A stretch of DNA of 64,000 nt, taken from the IMG/VR virus record IMGVR_UViG_3300031693_000204, one strand, 5' to 3'. A program made the position numbers and the translations under genes. Source of the stretch: an uncultured virus (IMG/VR IMGVR_UViG_3300031693_000204) (Duplodnaviria > Heunggongvirae > Uroviricota > Caudoviricetes). The notes under the pieces are model-generated. The model saw nothing but the letters and a program-made list of their open reading frames with translations, was not told where the DNA came from and ran no database searches. Every line of letters starts with the position of its first letter. Positions within the stretch are counted from its first letter, which is position 1. Of the stretch, positions 24,151 through 64,000 are shown in pieces.

Positions 24151-24569
24151 GATTGATTATTCACTCCACTCGCCTAGATACATAATAGCAATATCGCTGG
24201 AGGAAAATTTTGACATCAGATCATTTGAAAATAGATTTACGAGGTTCGAGCAGGGACGATTTGCTCACCTTGTCCAAAATGATCATGTCAATTTCGAAAA
24301 TTATTTCGGCTCAGGGATGCAAGGTTCAAATTGTCGTAAAACCTACCGCACCAACAGTTTCCTCTAACGACTGCGTTCCCATCTCGATCTCCAAGTGATC
24401 AAAAAATGCAAAATTTGCATTTCCCTCCTTACATTTGTGTCACGCTCAACGTACAATTCGGCACTGACACAACTTTCAGACCAAAAATTTCTTGCTGTCA
24501 CTCTTGACTTGGCCGACTTCAAATCATAACCTGAAAGTGTTCTTCTAATCGGACACCGGGAAGCGAACC

Positions 24570-24881
24570 ATGACAAACACAGACCCCCAAGAAAACACAG
24601 ACCCCCAAGATAAAGCTGATCTTGAAGCACTCAAAGTAATGTCAACTCGTCATGGGTTGTACGGCGTACTCAAGATGCTGTTTGAAGACTCAAAAGACAG
24701 TTGTGCAAAATTTGCAGAAGCGGGTAACATGGAAGCTGTTATTCATGGCGACTCATTGATGCTGATGCTGTGTCTACAACGAATGCAGTCTTGTGGATAT
24801 TCTCCCGGTGGAGCGATAATGAGACAATTGGATTCATTTGAACCACCAGAATGCCACAAAGATAATACATCGGAGTCCTAA
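24570..24881 (+). CDS. Hypothetical protein with 18-bp tandem repeat (24575-24610)
   Basis: ORF bounded by motif copies; NTDPQE/NTDPQD. Confidence 0.55.
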   Translation: MTNTDPQENTDPQDKADLEALKVMSTRHGLYGVLKMLFEDSKDSCAKFAEAGNMEAVIHGDSLMLMLCLQRMQSCGYSPGGAIMRQLDSFEPPECHKDNTSES

Positions 24882-24935
24882 CCGGACACCGGGAAGAGAA
24901 ACATAAACCGCCAACCAACCCACCTACGAGCCGAC

Positions 24936-25127
24936 ATGAACGAACAAGAAGTCATTGCCCTGATGGAAACAAGTCAGTCCGAAGAAGAATGGAATGCCAA
25001 CTGCGATAAGGTGAAAGCTGCCTGTGGTGGTGGTTATCCCGGATTTTGGTTTGCTGCTATCAATATGTCAGGACTGATGGCAAAGATTGTCGCTCGTTGG
25101 GGCGGTGACGATCAAATTAAAATATAA
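24936..25127 (+). CDS. Small hypothetical protein
   Basis: ORF between motif copies. Confidence 0.6.
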   Translation: MNEQEVIALMETSQSEEEWNANCDKVKAACGGGYPGFWFAAINMSGLMAKIVARWGGDDQIKI

Positions 25128-25266
25128 ACATTGCCCTAACCGGACACCGGGAAGTCAAATGTCGAGCAGGTTGGACTTGCTCATTTCAAACTTTGCTTGG
25201 ATGCACGATAATGACGCAGTTAATTCCTGTGTCGAACCACCCCAATTTTCCTGAAGGAGAATCGAG

Positions 25267-26505
25267 ATGACTGACGCTACCACGACGAAGGATGACGCTG
25301 CCACTACGGAAGCCCCGGAATCCCCGGAATCATCCAAGCCAGAAGCAAAGAAGCCAGCAGCGGCCAAGAAGAAGATAGCCGCCGCCAAAAAGCCTGAACT
25401 CAAGGTGGCCAAAGAAGGTGAAATCCTTCGAGTGCCGATTGGCTCGATTGCTTATGACAATCCCCGGAAAGAACCGGCGGCGTTGTACGAAGAGGGCTTT
25501 GTCCTCATCGGCGATCCGAAAAACGTCTCATTCGAGATGGATGAAGAGTCGCAGGATTGGGTTTTGGAACGTGATGGTTCTGAACCACAAACGGTCGAAG
25601 ACCCGTTCGATGAAAAGAACTTCGTTTCGTTGTCTCACATGGCGATCAACGAAGACATTGAGCAGGCTCGTCGATACGTCGATCTGATTGAGACATTCGA
25701 GTCCGTCAATCGCAAGGAATTTCCGAATGCTCCGCAGAGCATTGTCGAACTTGCTGGCGACATCCGTTTGTTTGGTCAGATGTACCCGATTCTCGTTCGG
25801 AAGAACGGCAAGACCGGATTCACTGGCATCGACGGTGGCCGACGAATGGCTGCGATCCTTTATCTGCACGCCAAGAGTCGGGTTCTGAAAGCCGACAAAG
25901 AAACTGATCCGATCTTCGGTGAAAAGACTCCGGCAATTCGTGCCGCAGATGTTCTGATCACCGAACAGGACTGCAAAGCAAGCGAAGTCAAGTTGCGATC
26001 ACTGGTTGCCAACTTGTCCCGCAAGGAATTCACGGCTCTCCAAGAGGGTCGGGTTTACCACGACATGTTGCAGGAAATCAATCCTGATACTGACAAGAAG
26101 TTCACAAGCAAAGATGCCGCTGCTTATCTCAAAGTCAATCCCGGTACTTTCCGAAATCGTGAAGCCCTGTGGCGTGAGCCGACCTTCAATGATGATGGAA
26201 AGCAAATCAAGGGTTTGAGCGATAAGCAACGACAAAAACTTGCTGACGGCGAAATGCTACTCACTGCTGCCAGCCGTAAGGCTCTCGGTGAACAGCACTA
26301 CTCCGAGACTGGCAAGCCCAGCACGAAGCGGAACAAAGGTGTTCCGTTGTCGAAGATGCAGCAACTCTTCGATGAAACTGCCGAAAGTAATGGCGAACGT
26401 CGTCAGGCAATTGCTGATTGCCAAGGAATCGAACTGAAGCAAGCCGAAAAGGAATCTGAGGCTCGTATCGAAGCTGTAGAAGCCGCTGAGCTTGCTGCTG
26501 CTTAA
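25267..26505 (+). CDS. ParB/Spo0J-like protein
   Basis: MYPILVR...IDGGRRMAA, ANLSRKEFTALQEG, HTH-like DAAAYLKVNPGTFRNR. Confidence 0.75.
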   Translation: MTDATTTKDDAATTEAPESPESSKPEAKKPAAAKKKIAAAKKPELKVAKEGEILRVPIGSIAYDNPRKEPAALYEEGFVLIGDPKNVSFEMDEESQDWVLERDGSEPQTVEDPFDEKNFVSLSHMAINEDIEQARRYVDLIETFESVNRKEFPNAPQSIVELAGDIRLFGQMYPILVRKNGKTGFTGIDGGRRMAAILYLHAKSRVLKADKETDPIFGEKTPAIRAADVLITEQDCKASEVKLRSLVANLSRKEFTALQEGRVYHDMLQEINPDTDKKFTSKDAAAYLKVNPGTFRNREALWREPTFNDDGKQIKGLSDKQRQKLADGEMLLTAASRKALGEQHYSETGKPSTKRNKGVPLSKMQQLFDETAESNGERRQAIADCQGIELKQAEKESEARIEAVEAAELAAA

Positions 26506-26530
26506 TGGAGAACCCCTCTCCCCCGCAGAG

Positions 26531-26567
26531 AGCCATCATCAGCACTTGCTGATGATGGCTTTTTTTT
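26531..26567 (+). terminator. Intrinsic terminator directly followed by motif
   Basis: AGCCATCATCAGC-actt-GCTGATGATGGCT plus T-run. Confidence 0.85.
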
Positions 26568-26592
26568 GTAACCGGACACCGGGAAGTAAAAC

Positions 26593-26982: not shown

Positions 26983-27040
26983 CCGGACACCGGGAAGAGA
27001 ATCGACCCAAACAACACAAAATTTGTAAAGGAATGTCGCC

Positions 27041-27952
27041 GTGGACTATGGAGCTATTCAACCGATTGATTTGAAAGACGGAGAAAAAGAAAAACTCGAA
27101 TCTTTCATGGCGAAAGCGTTCGTTACTCTTTCGGCGGAAGCCAAAGAAAGGTATGGTTTCCCACACGTACTTCGTTTGCGAAATGACTACAAACTGGGTC
27201 GGTGCAATTTGCGTCGATCTCCAGATGCCAAAGGTGTGATGGAACGACTTTCTTTGATTGAAGAGAGAGTTTTGGCCGGATACATTAAGGTAGGACATGC
27301 GTTGTTCACAGCGTTTGCTACAAACGGTTCAGAGAGACGGCCCGGAGTCACTGAGTGTGATTTCATTCAAGAGGGCGCACATGCTGTTTTTGATGCCATG
27401 TACACATACAATGGCGAAAATCGCTTTTCCACATACGTTTATTACTGTGTGAAAAATCGTTTGATTAACTTCTCTCGAAAAGAAGAGAAATCAGATGGCG
27501 GTGAGGTGTCTTTCAAGGTCAAGAAGATTCGTGCCAAGGTACGAGAACTGATGCAGGACTACAAAATAGACCTGCAAACAGCGATTGAAAGAGTGCAATC
27601 GGAAGATCATTTGGATGAACTTGTGATTGCAAATCTGAAATCATCATTCTCTCGTCGCCGGTCGGAGTTCAATTCCGAGTCTTACTCCACTCGACACAAC
27701 GAAGAGATGGAGTTGATGCTTGACGTGATTGAGTCAACTGAACTTGAGCCGCTTGAGAGAATCATCATTGAAGGAAAACTTCGTGATGGAAGAAGTTTCA
27801 TCGAGACCTATCGGAACGGTCCAGATGGAGTTAATCCCAATACTGGTAAACCCTTTACTCGTGCTTGGTTGGGACAAGTCTATCTGAAGGCGTGTGAAAA
27901 ACTGCAAGCCGTGTATAATGGTGAGAGCGTTAGCCAAACTGAAGCTGCGTAA
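27041..27952 (+). CDS. Sigma-70 family RNA polymerase sigma factor
   Basis: Region 2-like DFIQEGAHAVFDAMYTYNGENRFSTYVYYCVKNRL; region 4-like FTRAWLGQVYLKACEKLQ. Confidence 0.75.
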   Translation: MDYGAIQPIDLKDGEKEKLESFMAKAFVTLSAEAKERYGFPHVLRLRNDYKLGRCNLRRSPDAKGVMERLSLIEERVLAGYIKVGHALFTAFATNGSERRPGVTECDFIQEGAHAVFDAMYTYNGENRFSTYVYYCVKNRLINFSRKEEKSDGGEVSFKVKKIRAKVRELMQDYKIDLQTAIERVQSEDHLDELVIANLKSSFSRRRSEFNSESYSTRHNEEMELMLDVIESTELEPLERIIIEGKLRDGRSFIETYRNGPDGVNPNTGKPFTRAWLGQVYLKACEKLQAVYNGESVSQTEAA

Positions 27953-27989
27953 TCGGACACCGGGAAGATAAGCAGAAAGGGAGGACTTA

Positions 27990-29190: not shown

Positions 29191-29907
29191 ATGGATCTTC
29201 CTCGAATTAGTCCTTCTCGTCTTCAAAGAACAGTCGCAGACTGCGAGTATCCTGATGTGCCAGAGTCTTTCGAGTCTTTGTGTGAAAGCATGTCAGAAAC
29301 AAAATGGGCAAAGAATCTTAAACTTTCAGCCGATGTTGTTGGTCGTCTGATTGTTGCTCATGGAACAACTACAAAAGTTGAAATACCCGAAACAGTGGCC
29401 GAAGAGCCTGCTGCTCCAACCATTGAAAAAACAAAGTCTGCTGGAAAGGGCAAGAAGTATTGCCCCGGATGCGATGAGATCGTTGGCGCACGTTCGGCAG
29501 TGTGCAAGCATTGCGGACATGAGTTCCGTAAAGCTGCTGCCGCTGCTCCGAAGCCCGATCCAGTTGTTGACCCAGCGGAAGAGGAAGAGGCAATCGTGGA
29601 TTCGGTCTGCGAAACTCTGCTATCCGGTGAAGTAAAGCATCGTGCTTCTGGCATTGGTGTTCAGAGAGTCCATACACCGGCTGGAAAATGTCCCAGCAAA
29701 CTCCAAGGCACAAGTCTGGAAGAGGTTCGTGATTGGGGAGAGAGGGTCAGAGACACAGCCGGATCATCCAGAGTTTACACATATCATGCTCTCAAGTATT
29801 GGATAAGAGATTTTTATGATATGTGTGAATCGTGGAACAATCCAGATTGTGACTACAACATTGCTGTCCGTCACTTGACGGAAGTATATTCGCATGAGGT
29901 GCAATAA
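29191..29907 (+). CDS. Zn-ribbon hypothetical protein
   Basis: GKKYCPGC...CKHCGHEF. Confidence 0.6.
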   Translation: MDLPRISPSRLQRTVADCEYPDVPESFESLCESMSETKWAKNLKLSADVVGRLIVAHGTTTKVEIPETVAEEPAAPTIEKTKSAGKGKKYCPGCDEIVGARSAVCKHCGHEFRKAAAAAPKPDPVVDPAEEEEAIVDSVCETLLSGEVKHRASGIGVQRVHTPAGKCPSKLQGTSLEEVRDWGERVRDTAGSSRVYTYHALKYWIRDFYDMCESWNNPDCDYNIAVRHLTEVYSHEVQ

Positions 29908-31007
29908 TGAAAAGAAGTGAGATACACAAAAATGTAACAGATATGATGATCGCTTCTATTAACCAAGGAACACCACCTTGGCGAAAAACTTGGTCATTAA
30001 CATCAAGGCCAGATGTGATCGTTGAGTCTCCCAATGTGGGAAGCCCTTGCAACTTTCATAGTGGCCGCTGTTACAGCGGAATCAATCCGCTACTGTTGAT
30101 GCTCGCTTCTCAACATTATGGGTATGACTCAAGGCAGTGGGGAACAGACAAAGCATGGATGAATCATCTGGGTGCCAAAACAGATGGTCACGCCACAAGC
30201 ATCATACTATTTGCCTTCGTTCCGAAGAGAGACAAGGCAGGTAAGGTTGAAACCAACAAAGCGGGAGAGAAGATTACGTTCCCGTTGATGCGTGAGTTCC
30301 CGTTGTTCAATGCTGCTCAAGTCAAGCCTCCCATCGTGGAAGAGCTTCTGGACGGCAGATGTGGCAAGAAGACGGTGAGCGTGGTCAAGTCTCTGCTGAA
30401 AGGCACTGAGGCAAGAAGATCAAAGTCAACCGTGGAAGAGCTTCGGAAGATTGCCGGAAAGTACGCAAGAGAGTATGACGTATCAAACTTGACACGTCTT
30501 GAAATTGCGCAGGTGATCCATCGGGCTGTTGAAGAAAGAATTCACAAGTATCTGATTGTTGAGATCATTGAGTCTGAGCCTGACTTTGCACTGGCAGAAG
30601 AATTCATTAAAACCACTGGTGCAAAAATTGTGTATGGCCCAGACCCAAAGTATAAGTATCGAGGCGACATGATTCAAATGCCGTCGAAGAGAAACTTTGA
30701 TTCGCTGGCCGACTACTACGAAAGCATCTTCCATGAACTTTGTCATTGGGGAGAGGTAAGAGTCGGTCGGAAGAATAATGACTACAACTTCGGTGAGCTT
30801 GTCGCCGAGATTGGCGCATGTTTCTTAATGATGGAAATCGGAGTTCCTATGCACGCTGGCATGATGGAGCAACGGAAGGCATACGTTAAAAGCTGGCTGC
30901 GAGGAATGGAAAGCGATCATCGTTTCATATTTGATGCGAGTAAACAAGCCAGTAAGGTAGTAGACTTTCTACTGTCTATCAGTAACAACAACGTCAAAGT
31001 GGCATAA
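29907..31007 (+). CDS. ArdC-like ssDNA-binding / zincin antirestriction protein
   Basis: GTPPWRKTW, YSGIN, HELCHW, ELVAEIGA, YVKSWL. Confidence 0.8.
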   Translation: MKRSEIHKNVTDMMIASINQGTPPWRKTWSLTSRPDVIVESPNVGSPCNFHSGRCYSGINPLLLMLASQHYGYDSRQWGTDKAWMNHLGAKTDGHATSIILFAFVPKRDKAGKVETNKAGEKITFPLMREFPLFNAAQVKPPIVEELLDGRCGKKTVSVVKSLLKGTEARRSKSTVEELRKIAGKYAREYDVSNLTRLEIAQVIHRAVEERIHKYLIVEIIESEPDFALAEEFIKTTGAKIVYGPDPKYKYRGDMIQMPSKRNFDSLADYYESIFHELCHWGEVRVGRKNNDYNFGELVAEIGACFLMMEIGVPMHAGMMEQRKAYVKSWLRGMESDHRFIFDASKQASKVVDFLLSISNNNVKVA

Positions 31008-31018
31008 GGAAAATAGCA

Positions 31019-31429
31019 ATGAGCAAGAAATTTCTTACATTACAACCGGAGGGAACATCAGATCGTCCACGTTTCTCTATCATGGATGATGAAGGGAATC
31101 ATCTTGATGAAAGAAATGATTCGTGGGGAGATCGAGACAAGGCAACTTTGTATGCCAACGCCGCCGATGGTTGTCGGAAGATACAAAACATTCTCTTAGA
31201 TAAGTTTGGCAACTTGCCGAACCGGAGATTCGTTGTTCCGCTCTTCGTTGATCTTTATTGCGAAGATGAAGTGACAGAGAAGCAGGTTGCTGACTGGTTG
31301 CATCAAGTCACAAGGATTGCAACTGATGTTGATCGACATGGTTTAGGGCCGGTTGCCGAAAGTCTCGGTCTGCTCAATATTGATTGGAATTTACTGAGGG
31401 AGATGGACAATGCAAAACATAGTAGCTAG
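31019..31429 (+). CDS. Hypothetical protein
   Basis: 136 aa ORF with RBS. Confidence 0.6.
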   Translation: MSKKFLTLQPEGTSDRPRFSIMDDEGNHLDERNDSWGDRDKATLYANAADGCRKIQNILLDKFGNLPNRRFVVPLFVDLYCEDEVTEKQVADWLHQVTRIATDVDRHGLGPVAESLGLLNIDWNLLREMDNAKHSS

Positions 31430-32117
31430 ACTGTTCTTGGTCTCTCCATTATGGGTGATGTATTTCTTTCACCAAACACACAATGGCCCAGCGCATGAAG
31501 AGATGAATTTCTCCACTCTGCTCATGTTATCTGGCGGCATGTTCGCACTTTTGGCATGGAAGGACTACGGAAGAGCGCCACGATCATCAATATCTGTCAT
31601 CATAAGAAACATGGCAATGATATTTTGTGTGCTGTGCTCCTTTTTTATGTTGTTTGGATTTCCGTGGAGTATGTGGTACATGATGTCCCATGCTTTTACA
31701 TGGTTCTTTGTCTCAGTGCAAAAGATACTAAGCGTTATTGCGAGCAATACGATCTATCCCATGATGCAATCAAACTACAAGGAAGTATTAAAGACAGGAT
31801 GGCATCCGTATTGGGACACAACTGTCTTTAATTTTGACAGTGAACTCATTAACGATGGTGGGTTTGAAGAGCCGGTTACAAATTTTGTTCCGCCTGACGA
31901 TTGGAAGTTTCAGTGTCCCAGTTGTGGTGCTAGACAACAAACCAACTTTGGGGTGTGCTGGAATTGCAACTATGGTGCAGACGGTGATGATACGGCTTAT
32001 CAAGAAAGGTGGGGTCATCTTGATCCAAATCCTCCAAGGCCGTATAATGCTCCCACGGATGATCCGCCGCCACCAACTTCATCGGGAGAGTACATCCCGA
32101 TAGAACCTCGAAGATAA
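31410..32117 (+). CDS. Membrane protein with C-terminal Zn ribbon
   Basis: Several hydrophobic segments; CPSCG...CWNC. Confidence 0.6.
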   Translation: MQNIVARLFLVSPLWVMYFFHQTHNGPAHEEMNFSTLLMLSGGMFALLAWKDYGRAPRSSISVIIRNMAMIFCVLCSFFMLFGFPWSMWYMMSHAFTWFFVSVQKILSVIASNTIYPMMQSNYKEVLKTGWHPYWDTTVFNFDSELINDGGFEEPVTNFVPPDDWKFQCPSCGARQQTNFGVCWNCNYGADGDDTAYQERWGHLDPNPPRPYNAPTDDPPPPTSSGEYIPIEPRR

Positions 32118-33589: not shown

Positions 33590-34249
33590 ATGCGAGGGTT
33601 GTTAATCGAAGGCGGCTTTCCCCAGCGGTGTTACGTTGGGGAATGGGTTGATGGTCTGTGGCAAGATCATTACGCCGACAAGAGGCCGGGAGACACCATC
33701 GAAGTTACGATCAAGATGGGCGAAGAGACGCATAAAGAAAATTGGGATGTTCTTAAAGCTCCCGATCATTGGGCCGATCTTTGCGAACAAGAGTCTGAGG
33801 ACAATGAGTCTGATTGCTTTGACACAAGCATGGACACGTTTGACGTTTACATGCTTGAGCCGGGTGATTGTATATTTGATGCAGTCGAGATTGAGGATGA
33901 AAAATATCCCCTAATGAAATGGGGGATTGTGAAGTTGCACAGCAGAGATGCCGATCTGTTGTATATGGTGCCGTTATTGGAAAGTGATCCATACGGCAAC
34001 ATTACTGATCCAGATCATCCGTATCTTAAAGATAATTTATGGTATGGCGTCTTCATTGAAGACACCGAAGCCCAAGATCATCTTATGGCCTACACTGGTC
34101 ACGGAGTGTGGATTCACAGAACAGACTTGCTGGGTATAGACAGAGATACTTGTCGCAGTCAAATTGTAGAGCCGTGTAGAAAGTCTTTGTCGGATATGGT
34201 CAGTGGAATCATATCGGACACCGGGAAGGGAAGCAGGAGGAAACCATGA
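33590..34249 (+). CDS. Hypothetical acidic protein (may start at ATC 33503)
   Basis: Frame open upstream to a GGAGGA RBS. Confidence 0.6.
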   Translation: MRGLLIEGGFPQRCYVGEWVDGLWQDHYADKRPGDTIEVTIKMGEETHKENWDVLKAPDHWADLCEQESEDNESDCFDTSMDTFDVYMLEPGDCIFDAVEIEDEKYPLMKWGIVKLHSRDADLLYMVPLLESDPYGNITDPDHPYLKDNLWYGVFIEDTEAQDHLMAYTGHGVWIHRTDLLGIDRDTCRSQIVEPCRKSLSDMVSGIISDTGKGSRRKP

Positions 34250-35028: not shown

Positions 35029-35231
35029 CCGGACACCGGGAAATATACTGTAACTTTTGGTCAAAAAGTTTGCATTGCAACAGAAATTTCTGTTGTAAAG
35101 CACAAATCAGGGTTGCAGATCATAATCTGGTCTGTAATACTGGTTGACAACGATTTGAATGTTTTGCTGTAAAGCAAAAAGAGGGGAACACGAAGTGGCC
35201 CTCTCTCCACAACCCTTGAATGGAGTCAAAA

Positions 35232-35486
35232 ATGTCTGATCTGAAACGTCTGGTGCTTTCTCGTAAGAAAGACCAAAGAATCCGAATCGGAAACATGTGG
35301 GTCACTCCCATTGCGGTTCGAGGCGACAAAGTTCGTCTTCTGTTTGAAGCAGACGCAGGAGTGAAAATTCTAAGAGAAGAATGCTTGTCACCCGAGGAAC
35401 AATACGACTGTGTTGTTCTTGGAAAAGAGCCACAACCAGAACCGGCACCTCTAGCGTCGGCAATGGAAACTCGAAAAACTGCATGA
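35232..35486 (+). CDS. csrA: Carbon storage regulator CsrA-like RNA-binding protein
   Basis: LVLSRKKDQRIRIG...VRGDKVRLLFEA...VKILREE. Confidence 0.8.
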   Translation: MSDLKRLVLSRKKDQRIRIGNMWVTPIAVRGDKVRLLFEADAGVKILREECLSPEEQYDCVVLGKEPQPEPAPLASAMETRKTA

Positions 35487-35829: not shown

Positions 35830-36021
35830 CTTACAGAAACTAAGATATTTCTGTTATTCTGTGGTTACTACTTTACTTTGCTTTATGATCAACGTATGAT
35901 TGTGTTGTAAAGCAAAAAGACTCGCAACCCAAAACGTCTCTAACCGGACACCGGGAAGAGGGTCAACAACGCTTCGGCAGTGTAGCCGAGGCATCCTTAA
36001 CCGCAGTGGAGGAATTGAACA

Positions 36022-36785: not shown

Positions 36786-36812
36786 AAGGAACAGGACACC
36801 GGGAAACAGAAT

Positions 36813-50746: not shown

Positions 50747-50840
50747 TCGGACACCGGGAACGTGTACGTTAGGAAATGTTAATTGGTTTTCTTGTTGATG
50801 ATGCCGATGGAGCATCACGAAGGACGAAAAGGAAAGCAAA

Positions 50841-51167: not shown

Positions 51168-51211
51168 AAGAACCGGCATTCCGTTCGTCTCCACGGGATG
51201 CCGGTTTCTTT
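51168..51211 (+). terminator. Hairpin/terminator followed by motif
   Basis: AACCGGCATTCCGT/ACGGGATGCCGGTT plus T-rich tail. Confidence 0.65.
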
Positions 51212-51268
51212 AATTGGACACCGGGAAGAGAGATAGAAGCAACCACATAGAACAGACAGGAGAAAAGC

Positions 51269-52453: not shown

Positions 52454-53026
52454 GACACCGGAAAGACCAGTACGAACGATGTCTAACCATTCCAGAAACT
52501 CCGAATCCAACATATCATTTTTCATTCGGTTTACTGTAATGTGTACCCAACGAAGATTGCCCAGTTCATTCCCGCCTCCTCTGGATGTGGGAATGATATG
52601 GTCAAGGGAGGCATCGCCAGTACCCAATTCTATTGACTTGCCAGTAACGGCACAACAACCATTTTGAGATTCATAGAGTTCAGATAACTCTGTCCAGCGA
52701 CTTCTATCTTGTAAACCTTTGGTGGCAATGTTTTTGATTACGCACTTCTTACACAAAGATCGGGAATTGTGTTTAGCACCACCACAAGACTGACACTTGC
52801 CTTGCTCTTTCAGTCGAGCCTTGACTTTTCGACAACATTTGAGGCAACGTGTCTTGCCGTCAGAAGTCTTACCGCAGTCGCAGCATTTGCCTGATGATTT
52901 ACGGTCTGACTCCCATTTCCTTTTTCGCTCTAAGCATTTTGAACATCGGGAGTAGAACTTGCCGGTTTTGGCGTTGATTTCATCACGCTCATTTTTACAC
53001 GAGTGGCATTTTTGTTTTTCATTCAT
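52412..53026 (-). CDS. HNH endonuclease with Cys-rich N-terminus, antisense to the array
   Basis: Multiple CxxC; CAVTG...SLDHIIPTSRGGGNELGNLRWVHITVNRMK. Confidence 0.8.
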   Translation of the reverse strand: MNEKQKCHSCKNERDEINAKTGKFYSRCSKCLERKRKWESDRKSSGKCCDCGKTSDGKTRCLKCCRKVKARLKEQGKCQSCGGAKHNSRSLCKKCVIKNIATKGLQDRSRWTELSELYESQNGCCAVTGKSIELGTGDASLDHIIPTSRGGGNELGNLRWVHITVNRMKNDMLDSEFLEWLDIVRTGLSGVLYGTTTLSEGTTR

Positions 53027-53126
53027 ACCCTATCTAGTATTTAGGGTGAGGAAATTATAAAATAAAATTTGGACTAATCGGACACCGGGAAGGGAAGAGT
53101 AACGACAACCACATTTGGAGAGAGAC

Positions 53127-53894
53127 ATGACGAAGCGACAACCTTTACCAACCGAAATTCGTGAACGGGAAACCCCTGTTGATTTCACTGAAACTTTCAA
53201 GTGGCAGAAGTCAGTCACTTTTACTACTGAAAGTTTCGTGAAGTGGATGGAGCAAAATCTCCCTTCCATCAAGGGCATGACTCCCGGAATGCAAAATGGG
53301 ATCAAGGTCGGCGACAAACTCTTCTACTTGAAGTCGCTGCCGATCTGGTACTACACGTCGCACTTCGGATTCTCATTCATGCCAGTTTTGGGAACAATTC
53401 CGGCCCGTAGTGGATTGGAAATCTACAAAGGTAGGACTGCCGGTTACGCATACTTTGATCAACAAGTCAACATCCCTGTACTTGTCAACAATGACAGAGA
53501 ACCGTGGATGTCGCTGACCCCGAATGAAATTCTTACTCTCCGTGGATCGGTTCGCCGAACGAAGGGCAACGTGGGAATGGCCGGTCTTGGTCTTGGCTGG
53601 GTTGCAAGGAAAGTCTTGGAACGGTCCAAGGTCAAGCACTTGACGATCCACGAAATCGACCAGAGCGTTATCGACCAGTTTGGAAAATCTCTGATTGAAG
53701 ACTTTGGTGATCGAGTCAAGATCGTTCACGGCAACGCTTACGAGGCCGACTGGTCATCCTATGATGTGTCTCTGTGGGACATTTGGAAAGACTACGGTGG
53801 TGCATCTTGGGACAGCAAGTACAAAAAGATTCGTGACTCATTGCACAGAGATAACAAAATTTGTATTGGTTGGGGAGAAGGTGTTGGCGCATAG
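53127..53894 (+). CDS. SAM-dependent methyltransferase-like protein (spermidine synthase-like)
   Basis: WMSLTPNE, AGLGLG, IHEIDQSVI, WDIW. Confidence 0.65.
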   Translation: MTKRQPLPTEIRERETPVDFTETFKWQKSVTFTTESFVKWMEQNLPSIKGMTPGMQNGIKVGDKLFYLKSLPIWYYTSHFGFSFMPVLGTIPARSGLEIYKGRTAGYAYFDQQVNIPVLVNNDREPWMSLTPNEILTLRGSVRRTKGNVGMAGLGLGWVARKVLERSKVKHLTIHEIDQSVIDQFGKSLIEDFGDRVKIVHGNAYEADWSSYDVSLWDIWKDYGGASWDSKYKKIRDSLHRDNKICIGWGEGVGA

Positions 53895-53940
53895 GACACC
53901 GGGAAGAGAGTCGTAACAACCACAATTAGGAGAGACGACA

Positions 53941-54420: not shown

Positions 54421-54692
54421 TGAAAGCAATGATCGGATTCCAAAGGACAAGTATGATATACATGTCAAACAACGGGACTTGTCTTTGTGACGAACACGTC
54501 CGCTCTGGTGGAGCGTACTTGGAAGCGGAAGTCAGGCAACCCAACAATACCGTGTCAAGTAGGACAACACAAGATGGAGTGGATATCATTAAGACTCCGC
54601 TCGATGAATGGTTGTGCCTCACGCCGGAAATTGCCAAGCAAGAAAACGTCGAATGTGACGTGTGTAACCAATAGGACACCGGGAAGAACATT

Positions 54693-54884
54693 ATGGAAAA
54701 CAAACTAGGCATTACCCACACACCTGTTGATAATGGTGGCGTGAAAGAAAATCAATGGGTAATCAAACTCCCTGAGAATTGCGAAGTGGATATTTACGAA
54801 GAGTCTGGGACAATAACAATACAAGGTGGCGAACTGGACCTGAGAATTGCGAAGTGGATATTTGCGAAGAGTCTGGGACAATAA
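54693..54884 (+). CDS. Small ORF truncated by tandem duplication
   Basis: Frame shifts at the 68-bp duplication. Confidence 0.45.
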   Translation: MENKLGITHTPVDNGGVKENQWVIKLPENCEVDIYEESGTITIQGGELDLRIAKWIFAKSLGQ

Positions 54885-54906
54885 CAATACAAGGTGGCGA
54901 ACTGGA
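54771..54906 (+). repeat. 68-bp tandem duplication (54771-54838, 54839-54906), one mismatch
   Basis: CCTGAGAATTGCGAAGTGGATATTT(A/G)CGAAGAGTCTGGGACAATAACAATACAAGGTGGCGAACTGGA twice. Confidence 0.9.
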
Positions 54907-54922
54907 CACCGGGAAGAACATT

Positions 54923-55366
54923 ATGGAAAATACACGAATGAGTTCAATGAGCGAAGAACAACTGGCACGATTTGGTCAGTATATCGTTGACTTGTTTGGC
55001 CTTGTGTCTTTGGATGGCGTGGTTAGCCACGAAGTCATCGAGCCAATGGTCAACAACGGTTGGTCGCTGGGGCAAGAGAATCCGAAGACCTTAGTTGGTC
55101 TGGGTCGAATCATCGTGCGGCTTCTCAGCAATGCCGTGGAAGCCGACGATCAGATTTTGGGATATGTCCGATTGGATACTCCCAACAACCATGTAGCAAA
55201 AGACTTGCTGCTGCAAGCAATTGTCGAGCTTAAAGCTCGCCGTGAACCAGCGGAAGAGTATGTTGAGAAGCGGTACGAAGGACACACTGACAAGTTCCGT
55301 GCCGATAAACTGGTCCAGATTCAAGAGAAGTTGAGACTTCTTGAGGATGCTGGTATCGAAGTATAG
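54923..55366 (+). CDS. Hypothetical protein
   Basis: Bounded by motif copies. Confidence 0.6.
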   Translation: MENTRMSSMSEEQLARFGQYIVDLFGLVSLDGVVSHEVIEPMVNNGWSLGQENPKTLVGLGRIIVRLLSNAVEADDQILGYVRLDTPNNHVAKDLLLQAIVELKARREPAEEYVEKRYEGHTDKFRADKLVQIQEKLRLLEDAGIEV

Positions 55367-55584
55367 GACACCGGGAAAAAGGATATGAGAAATGAAAGTT
55401 TTATCTTCAACAAAACCGGAGCATCTTGAAGAAGATTTGCCGGAACTGGAAAGAGTCAATAAAGAACTAATGACTTCGGACAAACATCCAACTTGGAGTT
55501 GGTTTGGCGGAATGATCACGATCAAAGATCGTGAGTATCAAGTCGCACCAGATCCAACAGACGCAGAATAGGACACCGGGAACA

Positions 55585-56238: not shown

Positions 56239-56386
56239 TGCCTGACGTGCTACCTGTAAATGGCAAAGTCTACTGGGAAGAACGTGGTCTCAAGCCCGTC
56301 CTGTACAACAACAGCACAGAAAAGTACGAGGACGTAGGACACCGGGAAACAGGGCAACGAAACACAATTTTTGTATTGGAGACACG

Positions 56387-56956: not shown

Positions 56957-57073
56957 CCGACTGGACACCGGGAAGCGATGTGTAAGAGAAACTTTCAGTT
57001 TGTGTATAATTGAAAGTGTGAGAACGTCAGGTAAAACTGACGTGCTTCTTTTTCATTAACATTGGAGAACAAC

Positions 57074-57610: not shown

Positions 57611-57655
57611 TCGGACACCGGGAAGAGAGTTGTAACAACCACAACGGAGAAAACA

Positions 57656-58090: not shown

Positions 58091-58147
58091 ACGGACACCG
58101 GGAAGAAGGGTAACGAAGTCAACCCAAAATTTGCATTGGAGACAAAG

Positions 58148-58469: not shown

Positions 58470-58931
58470 ATGAATACTCACTTGGGAGTCAACTGGCACG
58501 AAGACCAACGGAAACACAACTCATTCTCAATTCGCATCGGCGGATCGAATGACTTTGTGAGCAAGATCGACCCGGAAGACAAACGAAGCTGTCCTCCCGG
58601 AAGCGTGGACTTGGTTGATGGAAGAAATTATCCAGACGTGATGAAGTTTGGAACACTGGACGAAGCACTGGAAGCTGCCGATCTGGTCTTCTCAATTGAA
58701 GGTTTCCACAACAGCATCGAGTCTGAGCTAGTACCGGACACCGGGAATCCAATTACTGTCGAGCACTTGGAAGTTTACTTCTGCCCTGAGTGGCAAAGTC
58801 GAGACGGTAACGGTTTTTGTGTAGACAACAGCAATGACTCAACTGGTCATCGCTTCCCCGACAATTTCAGTTGCGGAGCGTTCATCTGCTCGGAACTGGA
58901 ACGATTAAAGAAAGAAGCGAAAGCAGCATGA
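58470..58931 (+). CDS. Hypothetical protein with internal motif copy
   Basis: Motif at 58736 read as PDTGN. Confidence 0.6.
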   Translation: MNTHLGVNWHEDQRKHNSFSIRIGGSNDFVSKIDPEDKRSCPPGSVDLVDGRNYPDVMKFGTLDEALEAADLVFSIEGFHNSIESELVPDTGNPITVEHLEVYFCPEWQSRDGNGFCVDNSNDSTGHRFPDNFSCGAFICSELERLKKEAKAA

Positions 58932-59311
58932 TCTTAGCAGAAGCCGGATACGAAAAAGAAACGCACGACACGGGAGTCGCCAAAATCAAGGCGATGAAAC
59001 CCAACATCGAGCAAGCAATCCGGGAACTGGTTAAGTTGTACCACTCCCTTTACGAAGTGGACGCATACAACATTAACTGCGGAATGTGTGAAGATTTTTC
59101 CGCTGATGTGATTGCGATACTTGCTGACGGCAAAGAGTCAGAAGAACTTTGTGCCGTCTGGCATGACAATATGACAGATTGCACTCAAGCAGAAGAAAAT
59201 CACTGGGCGCACAACTTCGTAATATACGAAGGTCGCTTTTACGATTCACAATCACCCGAAGGGGTTGATGACTGGCGAAACATTCCAGCGTTTGCCAACA
59301 ACCCTGTATAG
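58928..59311 (+). CDS. Hypothetical protein
   Basis: INCGMCEDF...H...FYDSQSPEGV. Confidence 0.6.
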   Translation: MILAEAGYEKETHDTGVAKIKAMKPNIEQAIRELVKLYHSLYEVDAYNINCGMCEDFSADVIAILADGKESEELCAVWHDNMTDCTQAEENHWAHNFVIYEGRFYDSQSPEGVDDWRNIPAFANNPV

Positions 59312-59329
59312 GACACCGGGAAGGAAGAT

Positions 59330-59707
59330 ATGAAAGGTCAATGTTTCCCATACGCCGTGCAACAAGCAATGCAATTCGGCATGGCTGAATCAGAATCAGA
59401 CTTCGCCGTGGTTCATGGTGTTGTGCATACTCCATGTGCTATTCCAGCACATCGTTATGTTCACGCTTGGATCGAATGGCATGGCGCAGTCCACGACTGG
59501 CAGACGATGAAAGCCGGTCATGGCGGCAAGTACGAGAAGAAAGGATACCCAAAGGTCATTTTCTATGCTCTTTACAAACCAGAGAGAATCAAGACCTACA
59601 CCGCTGCGGAAGCAATGGCTGAATGTCTAAAGAGTAATCACGAAGGACCGTGGACGGATGATTTCGATGATGTTATCATGGAGCAACTGGACCGGCAACC
59701 AGCATAG
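59330..59707 (+). CDS. Hypothetical protein (Cys-His-Asp, transglutaminase-like)
   Basis: GQCF, VVHG, HAWIE, HD. Confidence 0.55.
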   Translation: MKGQCFPYAVQQAMQFGMAESESDFAVVHGVVHTPCAIPAHRYVHAWIEWHGAVHDWQTMKAGHGGKYEKKGYPKVIFYALYKPERIKTYTAAEAMAECLKSNHEGPWTDDFDDVIMEQLDRQPA

Positions 59708-59739
59708 GACACCGGGAAGAGAGTCGAAAGGAAAACATA

Positions 59740-59961
59740 ATGGTGAAACAAAAACACACTGTCGATTTCTTTGACTCAATGACGATGAAGAACCGGACTG
59801 AAAAATGTGTCGTATTGAGTATGTCTCTTAGCGACAACGAAGATGTTGAAGATATGGCAACTTGTCAGATCGAAAGACCAATCCGCAAACGTATTCGAGT
59901 ACCGATTACTTGTCTGGTCTGTTTGCATACTGGACAACGATTGCCATTTCCAGTCGAGTAG
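59740..59961 (+). CDS. Small hypothetical protein
   Basis: Bounded by motif copies. Confidence 0.5.
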   Translation: MVKQKHTVDFFDSMTMKNRTEKCVVLSMSLSDNEDVEDMATCQIERPIRKRIRVPITCLVCLHTGQRLPFPVE

Positions 59962-60010
59962 GACACCGGGAAGAGAACTGTAAGAAACAACCACATTCAG
60001 GAGACAAAGC

Positions 60011-60766: not shown

Positions 60767-60819
60767 CCGGACACCGGGAAGAGAGTCGTACAAAACACAA
60801 AATTTGTAAAGGACAAGAC

Positions 60820-61275
60820 ATGACAACAGACACACTACTTCCAATCTTTCACACTGTTAATGCTCCCATCACGGTCTCCGAAGGACGAATGCGGGACTTG
60901 CTTTGCTCCGCTATCGAGGGAGGCAGTGCGTATTGGGCATGTAACATGCAACACGAACTTGCCGAAGGTCTGGTCATCGGCGACTTCACCAAAGGCGGCA
61001 AGGAAGCACTCAAGGTCGAGGAATACTTTCCTTCGCACCAACTGATCCCATTCGTTGAGGGTTGTACTCTTCTGATCGAAGACACCGAAGAGGAAGACGA
61101 AGATGGAAAGCCAGTTGTGTACCGATTGGATCGAGCCGCAATGCAACGTGGACTTGATCTGATGGCAACGCAAATGCCGAAACACTTCACCGACTTCATC
61201 GACGAAAACGATGATGCAATCACTGCCGATGTTTGGTTTCAACTATCCTGCATGGGCGAAGTTGTCTACGGATAG
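60820..61275 (+). CDS. Hypothetical phage protein
   Basis: AIEGGSAYWA...DAITADVWFQ...GEVVYG. Confidence 0.7.
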   Translation: MTTDTLLPIFHTVNAPITVSEGRMRDLLCSAIEGGSAYWACNMQHELAEGLVIGDFTKGGKEALKVEEYFPSHQLIPFVEGCTLLIEDTEEEDEDGKPVVYRLDRAAMQRGLDLMATQMPKHFTDFIDENDDAITADVWFQLSCMGEVVYG

Positions 61276-61321
61276 GACACCGGGAAGAGAGTCGTAACAA
61301 CCACATTCAGGAGAAAACGAA

Positions 61322-61735: not shown

Positions 61736-61891
61736 TGGCGGAACAGGACACCGGGAAGATGGATGAGAGAACAGTCCGAAGACTGATCGGAGAAATTGAT
61801 GGTTTTCATGGGAATCAGTTGAAGCACCGAACTGAACAGCACATTGCTCAGGAAGTTCGAGTTATTCAACGATTCCTAAAGGAAGAAAAAG

Positions 61892-62146: not shown

Positions 62147-62194
62147 CCGGACACCGGGAAGAGAAGCGTAACAACCACATAAACGGAGAGACAA

Positions 62195-62671
62195 ATGAGC
62201 AATCGCATTACTGCCTACACCGATGCACCAACTGATTATGATTATCGTTGGATGCGTACCGAAATTGAAAACTACGCACTCTACGACGGCAAGAAGTCGA
62301 TCCGAATGTGTAGCAATGATGATAGCTGGCATTGCGATTCTCAAATCCAGCGATACGGTTCAGGAATGCACCTTGGACTTACGCAAGCGAGTTTCGACGA
62401 TTATGTCACGAGTGGGCTGATTGTGCTCACGCCAGACCTGCAAATCGTTCATCACCGGGCAGTCATTAACCTGCCAGATGATTACGATTATGACAGTGAC
62501 GGAACTTTCTTCAAGGCATACGAATACTACGCTTGCGGTGAAGGTAAAGCCGAAAACGTGAAGGTCGAAAGTGGTGCCTTTGGTGGAGGATCGAAGGAAA
62601 TCAGCATCTATGTTGTCGGCGACAAGCCGCTGTTCGACAAGATCGTTGCAGAACTTAAAGAAGCCGCATAG
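62195..62671 (+). CDS. Hypothetical protein
   Basis: Bounded by motif copies. Confidence 0.6.
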   Translation: MSNRITAYTDAPTDYDYRWMRTEIENYALYDGKKSIRMCSNDDSWHCDSQIQRYGSGMHLGLTQASFDDYVTSGLIVLTPDLQIVHHRAVINLPDDYDYDSDGTFFKAYEYYACGEGKAENVKVESGAFGGGSKEISIYVVGDKPLFDKIVAELKEAA

Positions 62672-62718
62672 GACACCGGGAAGGGCAGTAACGAAACAAC
62701 CACATTAAGGAGTTAAAA

Positions 62719-63231
62719 ATGAATTTGCTGCTCGCCGAAAAATTGTGCAAACACTTGATGAAAGAGTGGGACATTGACCCAAAGTGGGAGTTTTGCTGGT
62801 CAAATGGCAAACGCCAACTTGGTTGCGTGAAACAAACAAAGCCAGAGTTTGTTGAAATACAGCGTGCCGCTGGTAAGAAAGTTATCAGCAAGCTCTGCCT
62901 TTCTCGTCATCTGGTGAGGAACAATCCCGAAGATGAAGTGAGAGATACCATCCTGCATGAAATCGCTCACATCAAGGCCGGTCACGAAGCTGGTCATGGT
63001 CCGCTTTGGAAACAATGGGCCAGAAAAGTTGGTGCAAGGCCGGTTCGGTGTGCAACGCAAGTTCTCATGGTGCAAGCCAAGTACATTGTTGTTTGTACCG
63101 TGTGTGATTCAGTGACTCGGAAAGCACACAAGAGAGTTAAGTTGGCAAGACGATACTGCCGAAAGTGTGGAGTCTCTTCTTCTGGCAAGCTCGAACTACG
63201 ACACAACCCCGAAGCTGGTCAAGTCAAGTAG
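62719..63231 (+). CDS. SprT-like zinc metalloprotease
   Basis: DTILHEIAH, HGPLWK, CTVC...CRKC. Confidence 0.8.
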   Translation: MNLLLAEKLCKHLMKEWDIDPKWEFCWSNGKRQLGCVKQTKPEFVEIQRAAGKKVISKLCLSRHLVRNNPEDEVRDTILHEIAHIKAGHEAGHGPLWKQWARKVGARPVRCATQVLMVQAKYIVVCTVCDSVTRKAHKRVKLARRYCRKCGVSSSGKLELRHNPEAGQVK

Positions 63232-63265
63232 GACACCGGGAAGACAACCGAAAGGACAAAAAACT

Positions 63266-63523
63266 ATGAGCGAAACTAAAACATTACCCGAACTACAACA
63301 GCGTCTTATGGATGCTGAACTCGGACTCGTCGAAGATGATTTCGGCTATCACGCTACCGATCTGTACGTTGTGGCAAAGCCCGGCGTTCGAGAGTGGTTG
63401 AAAGCCAACTACGAATTCTTTTCCAACATCACCGGATTCAGAAGCCAAGAGGGTTCTGACTGGAATGGTGCTGGCAAGTTCTGCTTTGATATCCCTTTCG
63501 CTGGCAATTGGGAAAGGAGATAA
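63266..63523 (+). CDS. Small hypothetical protein
   Basis: HATDLYV...FDIPFA; bounded by motif copies. Confidence 0.6.
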   Translation: MSETKTLPELQQRLMDAELGLVEDDFGYHATDLYVVAKPGVREWLKANYEFFSNITGFRSQEGSDWNGAGKFCFDIPFAGNWERR

Positions 63524-63587
63524 CCGGACACCGGGAAGTGACCTGTAAGAGAAACGAACCTTTTTCAACCACACTGGAGACAAAGAA

Positions 63588-63932
63588 ATGACGAAGAACA
63601 AAACCGGCAATACGATCAATCAGATGCTCAGCAAGGCACGCACCCGCTTTCAGTGGTTGCAAAAATTGCAAAAGAATGTTTCACCCTTGCTCAACAAGTT
63701 GTCAGACTTTGAACTGGCACGCAATGTCTACGATCCGCCAAAGGTCGCCAACACGTTGACACTCACCTACTGTGGTGAAGAGACACCAGAAGCAGTGCTG
63801 AAAGCACGAAGTCGCTTCGAGAAGGTATTCGGCACGATCAACGATGACAATACCGTCGTTGTCAAGTGTGGTCGAATCACCATGACGATTACCGTGGTCA
63901 CTCCGACCGTTACCTTGAAAAAGGCCGCATAG
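63588..63932 (+). CDS. Hypothetical protein
   Basis: GGAG RBS; bounded by motif copies. Confidence 0.6.
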   Translation: MTKNKTGNTINQMLSKARTRFQWLQKLQKNVSPLLNKLSDFELARNVYDPPKVANTLTLTYCGEETPEAVLKARSRFEKVFGTINDDNTVVVKCGRITMTITVVTPTVTLKKAA

Positions 63933-64000
63933 GACACCGGGAACAATGGCATGGAAGCCACTAAGCCCAATCGGAGAAAAGAAAATGATACTGCAAAAAG

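Follow-up and report, generated by a model that had tools for sequence, protein, structure and literature searches.

The subject of this analysis is a 64,000-nucleotide stretch of an uncultured virus of the Caudoviricetes (IMG/VR record IMGVR_UViG_3300031693_000204), hereafter the window, and a short polar repeat with the core GGACACCGGGAA that punctuates its right-hand part. Each copy of the repeat is probably a phage-specific promoter together with a 5' leader, read by the host RNA polymerase with a phage factor of the sigma-70 family. The proposal builds on what can be seen directly, namely the repeat, its polarity and extent, the selection acting on it, its placement with respect to stop codons, start codons and terminators, a sigma gene near the beginning of the array and a parallel architecture in two related huge phages, from which we infer promoter activity, a start site and a reader protein.

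A polar repeat in the gaps between small genes

In a scan of both strands that allows one mismatch, GGACACCGGGAA matches the window 52 times, with 51 matches on the plus strand (49 exact; one mismatch each at 51748 and 52453) and one on the minus strand (45876, one mismatch), against a chance expectation of 0.25 and a maximum of 2 in 100 shuffles. The original prediction of about 50 polar copies is thereby borne out. It had noted no full reverse copy; the sole minus-strand match carries a mismatch, and the complete array described below contains no reversed copy. Within 24546-63944 lie 49 of the 51 plus-strand copies, and the window part of the array (24551-63943, plus strand) is built of these 49 copies, each standing before one to three small co-oriented genes; the remaining two copies, at 7146 and 23983, are the only ones in the first 24 kb, which is otherwise motif-free. 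Along the array the number of copies per 10 kb is 7, 10, 12 and 20, and the right end, at 1 copy per 500 bp, has the density that had been predicted for it.

Copies are intergenic and have the same orientation as the next gene, with a start led by a Shine-Dalgarno (SD) sequence downstream in 205 of 249 pooled, non-redundant motif instances. Offsets for this phage are counted from the G of GACACC. The predicted fusion of the motif to the upstream stop codon is likewise found, as TAA at -6 to -4 in 22 of the 49 in-range copies and as TAG at -3 to -1 in 17, with other contexts in 10; both positions belong to one shared frame relative to the motif, and an open reading frame (ORF) is closed by a stop at -6 or -3 in 154/249 pooled instances. 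The flank consensus AAYCG is kept even where it is not a stop (e.g., AGAACCG, ACAACCG), which indicates that the stop codons have been fitted into a tolerant edge of the element; the fusion is thus a matter of genome compaction and not a translational signal. The genes between the copies are unrelated to one another, in agreement with the prediction, and only one paralogous pair (E<=1e-5) occurs among 132 array ORFs of at least 50 amino acids. The distance from motif to start ranges from +11 to more than +100, so that the variation noted at the outset is real, but it is bimodal rather than continuous, with a sharp peak at +18 and a broad one at +44 to +55 among the 249 instances.

The core of 12-13 nucleotides that was first recognised is a true repeat, but the conserved element is longer. 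Its full form reads tAAYMG-GACACCGGGAA-G, a 5-nt spacer, YGTAAC, an A/C-rich leader, an SD sequence and ATG. Across the 51 core-anchored window copies the information content is high from -6 to +11, the profile rising at -4 and falling after +11, and no conservation is seen upstream of -7; the base at +11 is G in 38/51 copies and A in 7/51. The spacer is a variable purine-rich 5-mer, after which a second fixed block begins with a pyrimidine (Y) at +17 in 50/51, a purine (R) at +18 in 49/51, T at +19 in 33/51 and A at +21 in 39/51; in the pooled set, YRTAA stands exactly at +17 in 149/249 instances. The A/C-rich stretch (AACAACCACA-like) floats by a few bases and is followed by the SD sequence and the start codon, most genes having an SD sequence of their own 25-35 nt further downstream. 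No conserved RNA fold is found, the alifold consensus being fully unpaired; the leader is less structured than coding controls (-7.4 versus -9.8 kcal/mol), and an Rfam scan of the window returns only a tRNA.

The core is under strong selection. Variant alignments of less than 98.5% identity span 120 core positions (82 distinct), and at 117 of them the core is intact, compared with 564/1320 (43%) for control 12-mers in the same alignments, and the copies must therefore be individually maintained and are not merely recent duplicates. As a separate observation, a leader variant, ACACAAAATTTG(G/T)..GGAG, occurs in 20/249 elements, including the leader of the sigma gene (window positions 27017, 48608, 58125 and 60798, and extension loci), and may enhance translation, or be bound by a regulator, in some of the cassettes. 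The string CAAAATTTG is found 11 times on the plus strand and 4 times on the minus strand of the window. The string ACAAAATTTGT was considered as an operator palindrome, and is more likely the leader/SD variant ACACAAAATTTGGAGA (20/249 instances).

The array does not end with the window. A 106,117-bp contig contains the whole window without a difference; a second one, which matches window positions 40331-64000 exactly, adds 15.8 kb, and a third, which overlaps the second, adds another 10.5 kb. With overlaps removed and at most one mismatch in the core, the whole array comprises 121 copies over 63.7 kb, none reversed, at a median spacing of 406 nt. The 40-kb array of about 50 copies described originally is thus correct for the in-window part only, as the array reaches some 24 kb past the window end in two contigs (L148 and L173), where 61 of 63 extension ORFs have no Pfam family. 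A motif scan of metagenomes returned 90 stretches that represent 67 loci, each with its copies on a single strand, and one variant contig (L143) runs past the array end into opposite-strand genes. The metagenome runs that contain the stretch are labelled marine or seawater. Among deposited phages, blastn searches with 8-kb and 7.9-kb queries found no relative except for a weak 171-bp match in an unannotated 595-kb record; a 14-mer scan of IMG/VR returned at least 119 stretches, all single-copy among the matches listed, chance-like and without an array, and an 18-mer scan returned 0 matches, from which the phage is taken to be missing from the collection scanned.

Terminators, start site and the reading protein

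The two strongest terminators of the 44-64 kb region end 8-9 nt before copies of the motif. A 14-bp stem with a T-run at 44060-44095 (plus strand) ends 9 nt before the copy at 44105-44116, and a 15-bp stem at 51170-51207 (plus strand) ends 8 nt before the copy at 51216-51227; similarly, a hairpin with a run of eight T directly precedes the copy at 26574-26585, and a hairpin with a run of seven T the copy at 45329-45340. Under strict criteria, 8/249 pooled copies stand behind a terminator, as against 16/2000 random positions. At the same time, promoters of the sigma-70 type are at chance level in the 44-64 kb region (26 found versus 20.0 +/- 4.7 in shuffles). Because the genes behind terminators need a new promoter and sigma-70-type promoters are not enriched, the motif itself is read as that promoter. 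Among the four options that the original prediction had offered (a recombination site, a phage-specific promoter, an RNA-processing site or a strand-specific DNA signal), the phage-specific promoter is the best supported, by position, polarity, terminator adjacency, the fixed pyrimidine-purine (Y-R) step, purifying selection and the sigma-headed architecture of two related huge phages.

In the proposed mechanism, the invariant block tAAYMG-GACACCGGGAA-G, from -6 to +11, would serve as the recognition element, and transcription would most likely start at the conserved purine at +18, with the pyrimidine at +17 before it. A start at this position would place the block at about -24 to -7, in the manner of an extended -10-type promoter that has no -35 element. 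Most messages would then carry an unstructured A/C-rich leader with their own SD sequence, those with ATG at +18 would be leaderless, and upstream genes would end in the permissive 5' flank (TAA at -6, TAG at -3), by which genes and promoters would be packed without spacers.

ATG stands at +18 in 16/249 instances, of which 12 open ORFs of at least 40 codons, and coding conservation begins at the +18 ATG in variant pairs. In the window such starts follow the first array copy (24551-24562), the copy at 26574-26585, where the start is conserved in variant L174, and the copies at 36794-36805, 41919-41930, 54674-54685, 54904-54915 (with the same leader as 54674) and 59311-59322. None of the 249 instances has ATG at +15, +17, +19, +20 or +22, and few have it from +21 to +28; the sharpness of the +18 peak is in part forced by the Y-R-T constraint. 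Outside the block, SD sequences do not start at +14 to +18 and become frequent only from +19 on. YGTAAC as the -10 element of a conventional sigma-70 promoter, which would start near +29, is ruled out by the many copies in which the SD sequence begins at +19 to +28.

The candidate reader is encoded at 27041-27949 (plus strand), the fifth ORF of the array, with a motif copy (26985-26996) immediately upstream. Profile searches identify the 303-amino-acid product as a divergent sigma-70-family factor: it aligns to RpoD regions 2 to 4.2 (family profile, E 8e-6) and matches the sigma family phrog_351 (1.4e-7), its score against TIGR02937 (37.7 bits) lies below the cut-off of 42.9, and its Pfam score also falls just below the cut-off. 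Encoded at the head of the array, this factor would be auto-activated if it is the reader; equally well, a different phage sigma may read the motif, and the gene at 27041-27949 would then belong to the regulon of the motif, for example as the sigma of the next temporal class. The sigma family is small, with 11 clusters found and 35-55% identity among the non-trivial members, six of which (39-55% identity) are encoded on contigs of up to 664 kb. Single-protein IMG/VR locus searches with the sigma factor and an AAA protein gave no match; an alignment-based IMG/VR scan returned two huge-phage records, G002 and G003, with sigma homologues that are 35% identical.

Both records, G002 being taken whole (177 kb) and G003 over 398.8 of its 458.8 kb, beyond the first 60 kb, carry a polar array of their own. 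The motif of the window phage, GACACCGGGAAG, has as its counterpart in the two relatives GATACCAACTAG, which takes the form (G/A)ATACCAACTA(G/A) in G002 and T(G/A)ATACCAACTAG in G003; ATACCAACTA occurs 24 times on the plus strand and 0 times on the minus strand of G002, and 98 and 0 times in G003. In G002, 25 array-type copies span 125,827-176,117, with the sigma gene at 127,406-128,260; in G003, 98 of 108 plus-strand ATACCAAC sites lie within 265,395-358,794, with the sigma gene at 266,969-267,823, and motif density rises distally. The sigma gene stands at the array head in both, with a motif copy about 1.6 kb upstream of it. In each of the three phages the Y and the R stand 6 and 7 nt past the end of the block (G003, Y in 76/98 and R in 87/98; G002, Y in 17/28 and R in 23/28), and G003 also has embedded stops, with TGA or TAA at -2 in 48/98 copies and TAG at +8 in 14/98. 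The three motifs have GAYACC-N4-A-R in common and differ in their 3' halves, from which it follows that the motif co-varies with the sigma factor.

The terminators of G003 bear on the start site in another way. Hairpin-plus-T-tail criteria select 17/98 of its copies, 16 of which are strong terminators (-20 to -37 kcal/mol, T-rich tail), whose 5' arms start inside the motif, take in its last bases (AACTAG...CTAGTT) and end at +17 to +24, for instance at 338768, 342534 and 350202-357079. This looks like an interleaved terminator-promoter arrangement, because with the 5' arm inside the motif only transcripts that start at or after Y-R escape termination, and those from upstream terminate. Modules of the polymerase beta (PF00562) and beta-prime (PF00623) subunits were not found in G002 and G003, with controls positive in 14/14 genomes. 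As far as these sequences go, a sigma-headed polar motif array is conserved across a group of huge phages, and such an array, together with a motif that changes with the sigma factor, favours the host polymerase as the enzyme, under the direction of a phage sigma. A sigma family that is new and divergent, paired with an unusually long, invariant, G/C-rich block forms a concrete, testable pair, and the pair of the window phage together with the related pair in two AT-rich huge phages would amount to a natural specificity swap, possibly of use as an orthogonal expression part.

A number of observations weigh against a sigma-read promoter that starts at +18. ORF-opening ATGs occur upstream of that start, at +11 to +14, in 13/249 instances, one of them clearly a real start; in the window, ATG stands directly at +11 after the copy at 47512-47523, and the real start after the copy at 55571-55582 is the ATG at +13, since variant L155 has a stop in the alternative frame. 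In one cassette the SD sequence lies at +13 (copy 55366-55377, where it serves an ATG at +25 and misfits a +18 start), and SD sequences begin at +11 and +15-16 in G002. Such signals need either read-through transcripts or a start at the block end; since translation can also draw on read-through messages where genes are so densely arrayed, the positions of SD sequences and ATGs do not settle the start site. Two metatranscriptome runs (X23 and X24) contain 10% and 6% of the sampled words, and over 44-64 kb they yield 17 and 8 short contigs of depth 2-7 with no piles of ends, too sparse to place 5' ends. The GGGAAG that would form the -10 part is rich in G and resembles none of the known -10 elements, and the invariance of the block up to its very end, together with its likeness to the Syn5 promoter, fits a T7-type promoter better. 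The link to the sigma factor consists of two independent sigma/motif pairs and synteny, the relatives carry 2 and 3 sigma genes, by which the reader is not singled out, and a single-protein query found no sigma homologue in a metagenome-assembled genome (MAG) of Gimesia that has three canonical copies of the element.

The main rival, which we regard as unlikely, is a promoter of a single-subunit phage RNA polymerase of the T7/Syn5 type, or of another phage RNA polymerase, in which the 15-bp block AYMGGACACCGGGAA would abut the start, with G at +11. According to the cited excerpt, the Syn5 promoter has 15 bp followed by G(+1) (PMC3950665), and it is identical to the present consensus at 12/16 positions when set in its natural register (weight-matrix P about 2.5e-4), T7's own promoter being not significant in the same matrix test. 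The information-content profile from -4 to +11 has the same extent of 15-16 nt, +11 is G or A in the proportions given above, the ATGs at +11 to +14 (13/249) would be leaderless or nearly so, and the SD sequence at +13 and those of G002 at +11 and +15 would fall inside the message. Against this stands the fixed Y-R-T-A-A at +17 to +21, which would be left unexplained, and in G003 transcripts from the block end would carry the full hairpin and T-run and would self-terminate. Moreover, the element is without the A/T-rich melting segment that lies just before +1 in T7-type promoters, as described in the excerpt of PMC13029058 and in part as general background. The polymerase family PF00940 is found in none of the 101 window ORFs scanned, nor in G002 and G003 (one of them 91% complete) or the Gimesia MAG, the searches of these three having been run without a positive control. 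The largest unexplained protein of the window, of 741 amino acids (17792-20014, minus strand), was considered as a hidden polymerase and set aside, as Pfam, PHROGs and PDB yield no relative and its Atlas model is weak (predicted local distance difference test, pLDDT, 0.56). On balance, a start at +18 and a sigma-type reader are favoured.

It is quite improbable that the motif is instead a regulator site in every gene gap, either a stoperator-like asymmetric repressor site or an activator site. The site is indeed a 13-nt asymmetric sequence, oriented with transcription and set in short gaps where it overlaps stops, much as cluster A mycobacteriophage stoperators are; selection on the site is strong, and it recurs in an integrated island of the Gimesia MAG. 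Such a role would, however, leave the array without promoters, as sigma-70-type ones are at chance level, yet the genes behind strong terminators must be transcribed. A fixed Y-R and a conserved leader would not be expected of a roadblock, Pfam, PHROGs and NCBIfam revealed no repressor-like gene in the window, and 121 sites are several-fold more than stoperator phages possess.

A signal at the RNA level, be it a linear endoribonuclease site after each stop or a termination-reinitiation or standby site for ribosomes, is very improbable. The fusion of stops in one fixed frame (154/249), the GGGAA that lies 7 nt before the +18 ATG and could act as a weak SD sequence, and contigs from RNA libraries that span the motif all accord with it. 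The RNA-processing site of the original prediction is nevertheless not supported, for want of a conserved fold: no conserved or unusually stable structure and no Rfam family is seen, the AAYCG flank persists where it is not a stop, copies lie directly behind intrinsic terminators, where no upstream RNA arrives, and most genes have their own SD sequence 25-35 nt further on.

Cassette turnover, island copies and neighbouring genes

Between variant contigs, 13/51 internal alignment ends fall within 10 nt of a core, compared with 2.4% of random positions; the 51 ends are not independent and represent, by our count, about 6 distinct core-associated sites out of about 20, and their enrichment is inflated by the intergenic location, which alone favours breaks. 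Breakpoints are seen at the copies at 35031-35042 (in variants L129 and L175), 36794-36805 and 38376-38387 (both L175) and 56337-56348 (L155). At the copy at 63231-63242 an extra cassette of about 600 bp is present in variants L120 and L133, where both flanking alignments overlap in the core, and at the copy at 58093-58104 variants L134 and L155 have an insertion of about 160 bp. The variants are collinear and differ by insertions and deletions only, with no reshuffled order. As a side observation, a 69-bp tandem duplication (54771-54839 and 54839-54907; 98.5% identical) lies beside the copies at 54674 and 54904, and may be a recent cassette duplication or slippage.

A block of about 15-35 nt that is repeated 121 times in one orientation can also provide short homology for the insertion and deletion of cassettes, and cassette turnover looks like homologous exchange at a repeated promoter, as proposed for the promoter-early stem-loop (PeSL) modules of T4-type phages. 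Of the recombination site predicted originally, it is this secondary exchange role that is supported. A dedicated site for site-specific recombination, in an integron-like cassette system, is extremely doubtful, although breakpoints of insertions and deletions lie in the core, flanking alignments overlap there at 63231 and 58093, the genes are unrelated ORFans (61/63 extension ORFs without Pfam, 1 paralogous pair in 132), and a serine recombinase adjoins mini-arrays of 2-4 copies in three loci (L162, L180 and L188). No inverted-repeat or attC-like structure is present, no recombinase is found among the window ORFs scanned, variants remain collinear, and the breakpoints at the core amount to about 6 of about 20 distinct ones, an enrichment that intergenic position inflates. 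Apparent joints in two DNA runs (X9 and X10) are ruled out as evidence of excision, being cross-matches between repeat copies with 21-30 nt on the shorter side, and the conserved leader and SD sequence point to expression. The least probable reading of all is a strand-specific DNA signal (a programmed nick, a priming site, a Chi/KOPS-like or a packaging signal), which would suit the absolute strand polarity over 64 kb but not the confinement of copies to gene gaps, their fixed stop register and the leader, SD sequence and ATG after them, the near absence from the first 24 kb (2 copies) or the three copies in a bacterial chromosomal island, polar replication and recombination signals not being expected to avoid coding sequence.

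Copies of the element also occur outside the phage array. A GTDB scan matched three stretches, of which that in the Gimesia MAG is real and those in an Oscillospiraceae MAG and an uncultured-bacterium MAG are single chance-like matches. Canonical extended copies number 4 in L162, 2 in L180 and 3 in L188, the last being the Gimesia sp. MAG, in which four other exact cores lack the extended context. The three loci share a homologous island (L188 about 8391-14305; L162 5688-11636; L180 6317-11591) with an ArdC-like gene, two unknown genes, 2-4 motif-led cassettes and a serine recombinase, flanked by ordinary planctomycete genes or, in L162, by a mer operon. One of the proteins encoded by the island cassettes shares 47% identity with an array protein, and the product of window ORF 31419-32015 shares 64% with a 202-amino-acid protein from another part of the Gimesia contig; this sequence kinship suggests a planctomycete host of the Gimesia type. 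No defence-system family appears in the 12 island proteins scanned, and an NCBIfam search of 7 island proteins (in a run that also took 6 window proteins and one L143 protein) recovered the serine recombinase only. A 315-amino-acid protein of the L162 island was tried as a sigma relative and ruled out (profile probability 0.2%).

The island could be a phage remnant or an element that is switched on by the phage transcription factor. A wider proposal, with a low probability of being right, is that the sigma-specific promoter is at the same time the site where genes are joined into a capture platform that needs no integrase, a design that would be clade-wide and work through short-homology swaps in a 60-90-kb ORFan array, with island genes that would stay silent until the phage sigma or polymerase arrives. 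If this were true, the Gimesia island would be a defence island triggered by infection, or else a satellite listening for the phage transcription signal. The island copies in any case raise the question of whether host elements eavesdrop and how such copies are read in the absence of the phage. More than 100 unrelated ORFan genes would each be wired as an independent cassette to one temporal signal, their turnover visible between co-occurring strains, in an uncultured marine huge phage tied to planctomycetes of the Gimesia type.

No structural phage genes are found among the window ORFs scanned. The window encodes accessory or take-over-type functions, including a radical SAM protein, an HD phosphohydrolase, two RNA ligases, a PARP-like protein, AAA ATPases, a NUDIX protein and HNH endonucleases, as well as ParB-like, ArdC-like, CsrA-like, GmrSD-N, PAPS-reductase-like and SprT-like proteins. 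With the huge-phage relatives of the sigma factor, which is itself recorded on a contig of up to 125.8 kb, the window is read as part of a phage of at least 126 kb. Several of these genes are motif-led or lie in motif-led operons, namely the CsrA-like gene (35220-35483), the ArdC-like gene with a zincin peptidase domain (29907-31004) and the PARP-like ADP-ribosyltransferase gene with a WGR domain (7185-8918). The last of these follows the outlying copy at 7146-7157 (plus strand), which has a canonical context (TAACCG flank, cATAAC at +17, SD sequence, ATG at +38); the other outlying copy, at 23983-23994 (plus strand), is an exact core with non-canonical flanks (no AYMG, no YRT) and is possibly decayed.

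Among the array copies located by the motif scan, all on the plus strand, that at 27955-27966 precedes a 6.2-kb operon of an AAA ATPase, a Zn-ribbon protein, the ArdC-like protein and an RNA ligase. The copy at 46875-46886, with full element and leader, lies between the halves of a split UvrD-like helicase, an N-terminal ORF of 501 amino acids (45367-46869) and a C-terminal-domain ORF of 198 (46916-47509). The ORF upstream of the copy at 50276-50287 reads through the core. Of the two one-mismatch variants, that at 51748-51759 (..GGGAT) lies inside the PAPS-reductase-like ORF and is probably not functional, and that at 52453-52464 (..GGAAA) is fused to a TAG stop. The remaining copies lie at 24884-24895, 25142-25153, 34216-34227, 35946-35957, 39601-39612, 40876-40887, 42557-42568, 42799-42810, 48579-48590, 49596-49607, 50749-50760, 53080-53091, 53894-53905, 56963-56974, 57613-57624, 58736-58747, 59707-59718, 59961-59972, 60769-60780, 61275-61286, 61746-61757, 62149-62160, 62671-62682 and 63526-63537, and the last copy in the window at 63932-63943.

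Three further observations concern the expression of the phage genome. The first 24 kb, poor in the motif, has a recurring signal of another kind, in which CGTAGAATG or GCTAGAATG comes after an A/T-rich TTTGYA stretch (at about 6301-6325 and in front of ORFs 9034, 9828 and 24080; found by eye, without a chance count); this signal resembles an extended -10 promoter of the sigma-70 type and may mark a class that depends on the host polymerase. Just past the array end in strain variant L143, a stand-alone RNA polymerase alpha C-terminal domain of 97 amino acids is encoded (L143 15060-15350, minus strand; PF03118, 66 bits), and may be another handle on the host polymerase. A tRNA with the anticodon CUA, an amber suppressor, lies at 15578-15653 (plus strand; ARAGORN 'tRNA-Pyl', Rfam tRNA 55 bits). 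The window gives no sign of TAG recoding, as TAG read as sense lifts the coding fraction merely from 0.91 to 0.94 and from 0.87 to 0.89, and the targets of the suppressor may lie elsewhere in the genome.

Comparison with known systems

The late promoters of T4 are read by gp55. Promoters of other phage sigma factors can consist of a single block of 9-12 nt, TAATGTATA in phiEco32 and tgTGATGTtata in phage 7-11, which is also found upstream of the sigma gene itself, according to the excerpts of PMC4331800. As far as these excerpts go, the present element is alike in having a short contiguous phage-specific block with no -35 element that is over-represented, co-oriented and intergenic, in a phage with its own sigma-70-family factor and a copy before the sigma gene. 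It differs in that the block is longer (13-18 nt) and G/C-rich, that 121 copies compare with about 10 in phage 7-11, that small ORFan genes rather than middle or late structural genes are served, and that stops are built into the flank; moreover, the sigma family is a different one, and promoter activity is here a prediction.

The PeSL modules of T4-type phages (PMC4122927, PMC2839356) are similarly repeated promoter-leader-SD units before small ORFan genes in hyperplastic regions and at the edges of segments inserted, deleted or replaced between close relatives, and have been proposed, in the portion cited, as homology for recombination (PMC4122927). They are described there as sigma-70-type -35/-10 promoters with a stem-loop just upstream, whereas the present element has no such hexamers, an upstream stem-loop in only 8/249 instances, though a few of them are striking, a far more uniform block and a larger, uninterrupted array. 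The Syn5 promoter, so far as the excerpt describes it, is alike in its 15-bp block followed by G, in 12/16 identities in register and in its marine setting; unlike it, the present element has an additional fixed YGTAAC at +17, and no such polymerase was found in the window or the relatives. The Syn5 genome has few promoter copies.

Stoperators of cluster A mycobacteriophages, in the excerpts of PMC6550527 and PMC9283540, are asymmetric 13-bp sites in gene gaps, mostly in one orientation and genome-specific in sequence, to which the present sites are alike. The immunity repressor stops elongation by binding to stoperators, which coexist with ordinary promoters, whereas no repressor was identified in the present window, other promoters are not evident, and each site is followed by a fixed, start-like Y-R and a leader. 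The start-associated sequences of cluster K mycobacteriophages are reportedly 13-nt motifs before genes, placed immediately at the ribosome-binding site, in contrast to the wide, bimodal start distance and separate SD sequence seen here. Integron systems rely on IntI, attI and the imperfect palindrome attC. Their long one-directional arrays of unrelated small genes with a recurring site after the stop are much like the present one; the array of the window phage differs in having no R''-L''...L'-R' fold, no integrase among the window ORFs scanned, a near-invariant site and cassettes that carry their own expression signals. Nor is there a conserved stable stem-loop, as in the RNase III processing hairpins of the T7 type.

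A literature text search for GACACCGGGAA (supplements aside) found no published description of the motif, the listed occurrences of the string belonging to unrelated subjects by title and abstract. To call the arrangement an undescribed system, as the original prediction did, is nonetheless an overstatement, for phage-specific promoter arrays before small early or accessory genes are of a well-known kind. What is new in comparison with the systems above is the sigma family/motif pair, its conservation and co-variation across huge phages, the scale of the arrays, with 121 copies in one and about 98 in another, the way stop codons are fused to the motif, and the presence of copies in a planctomycete island.

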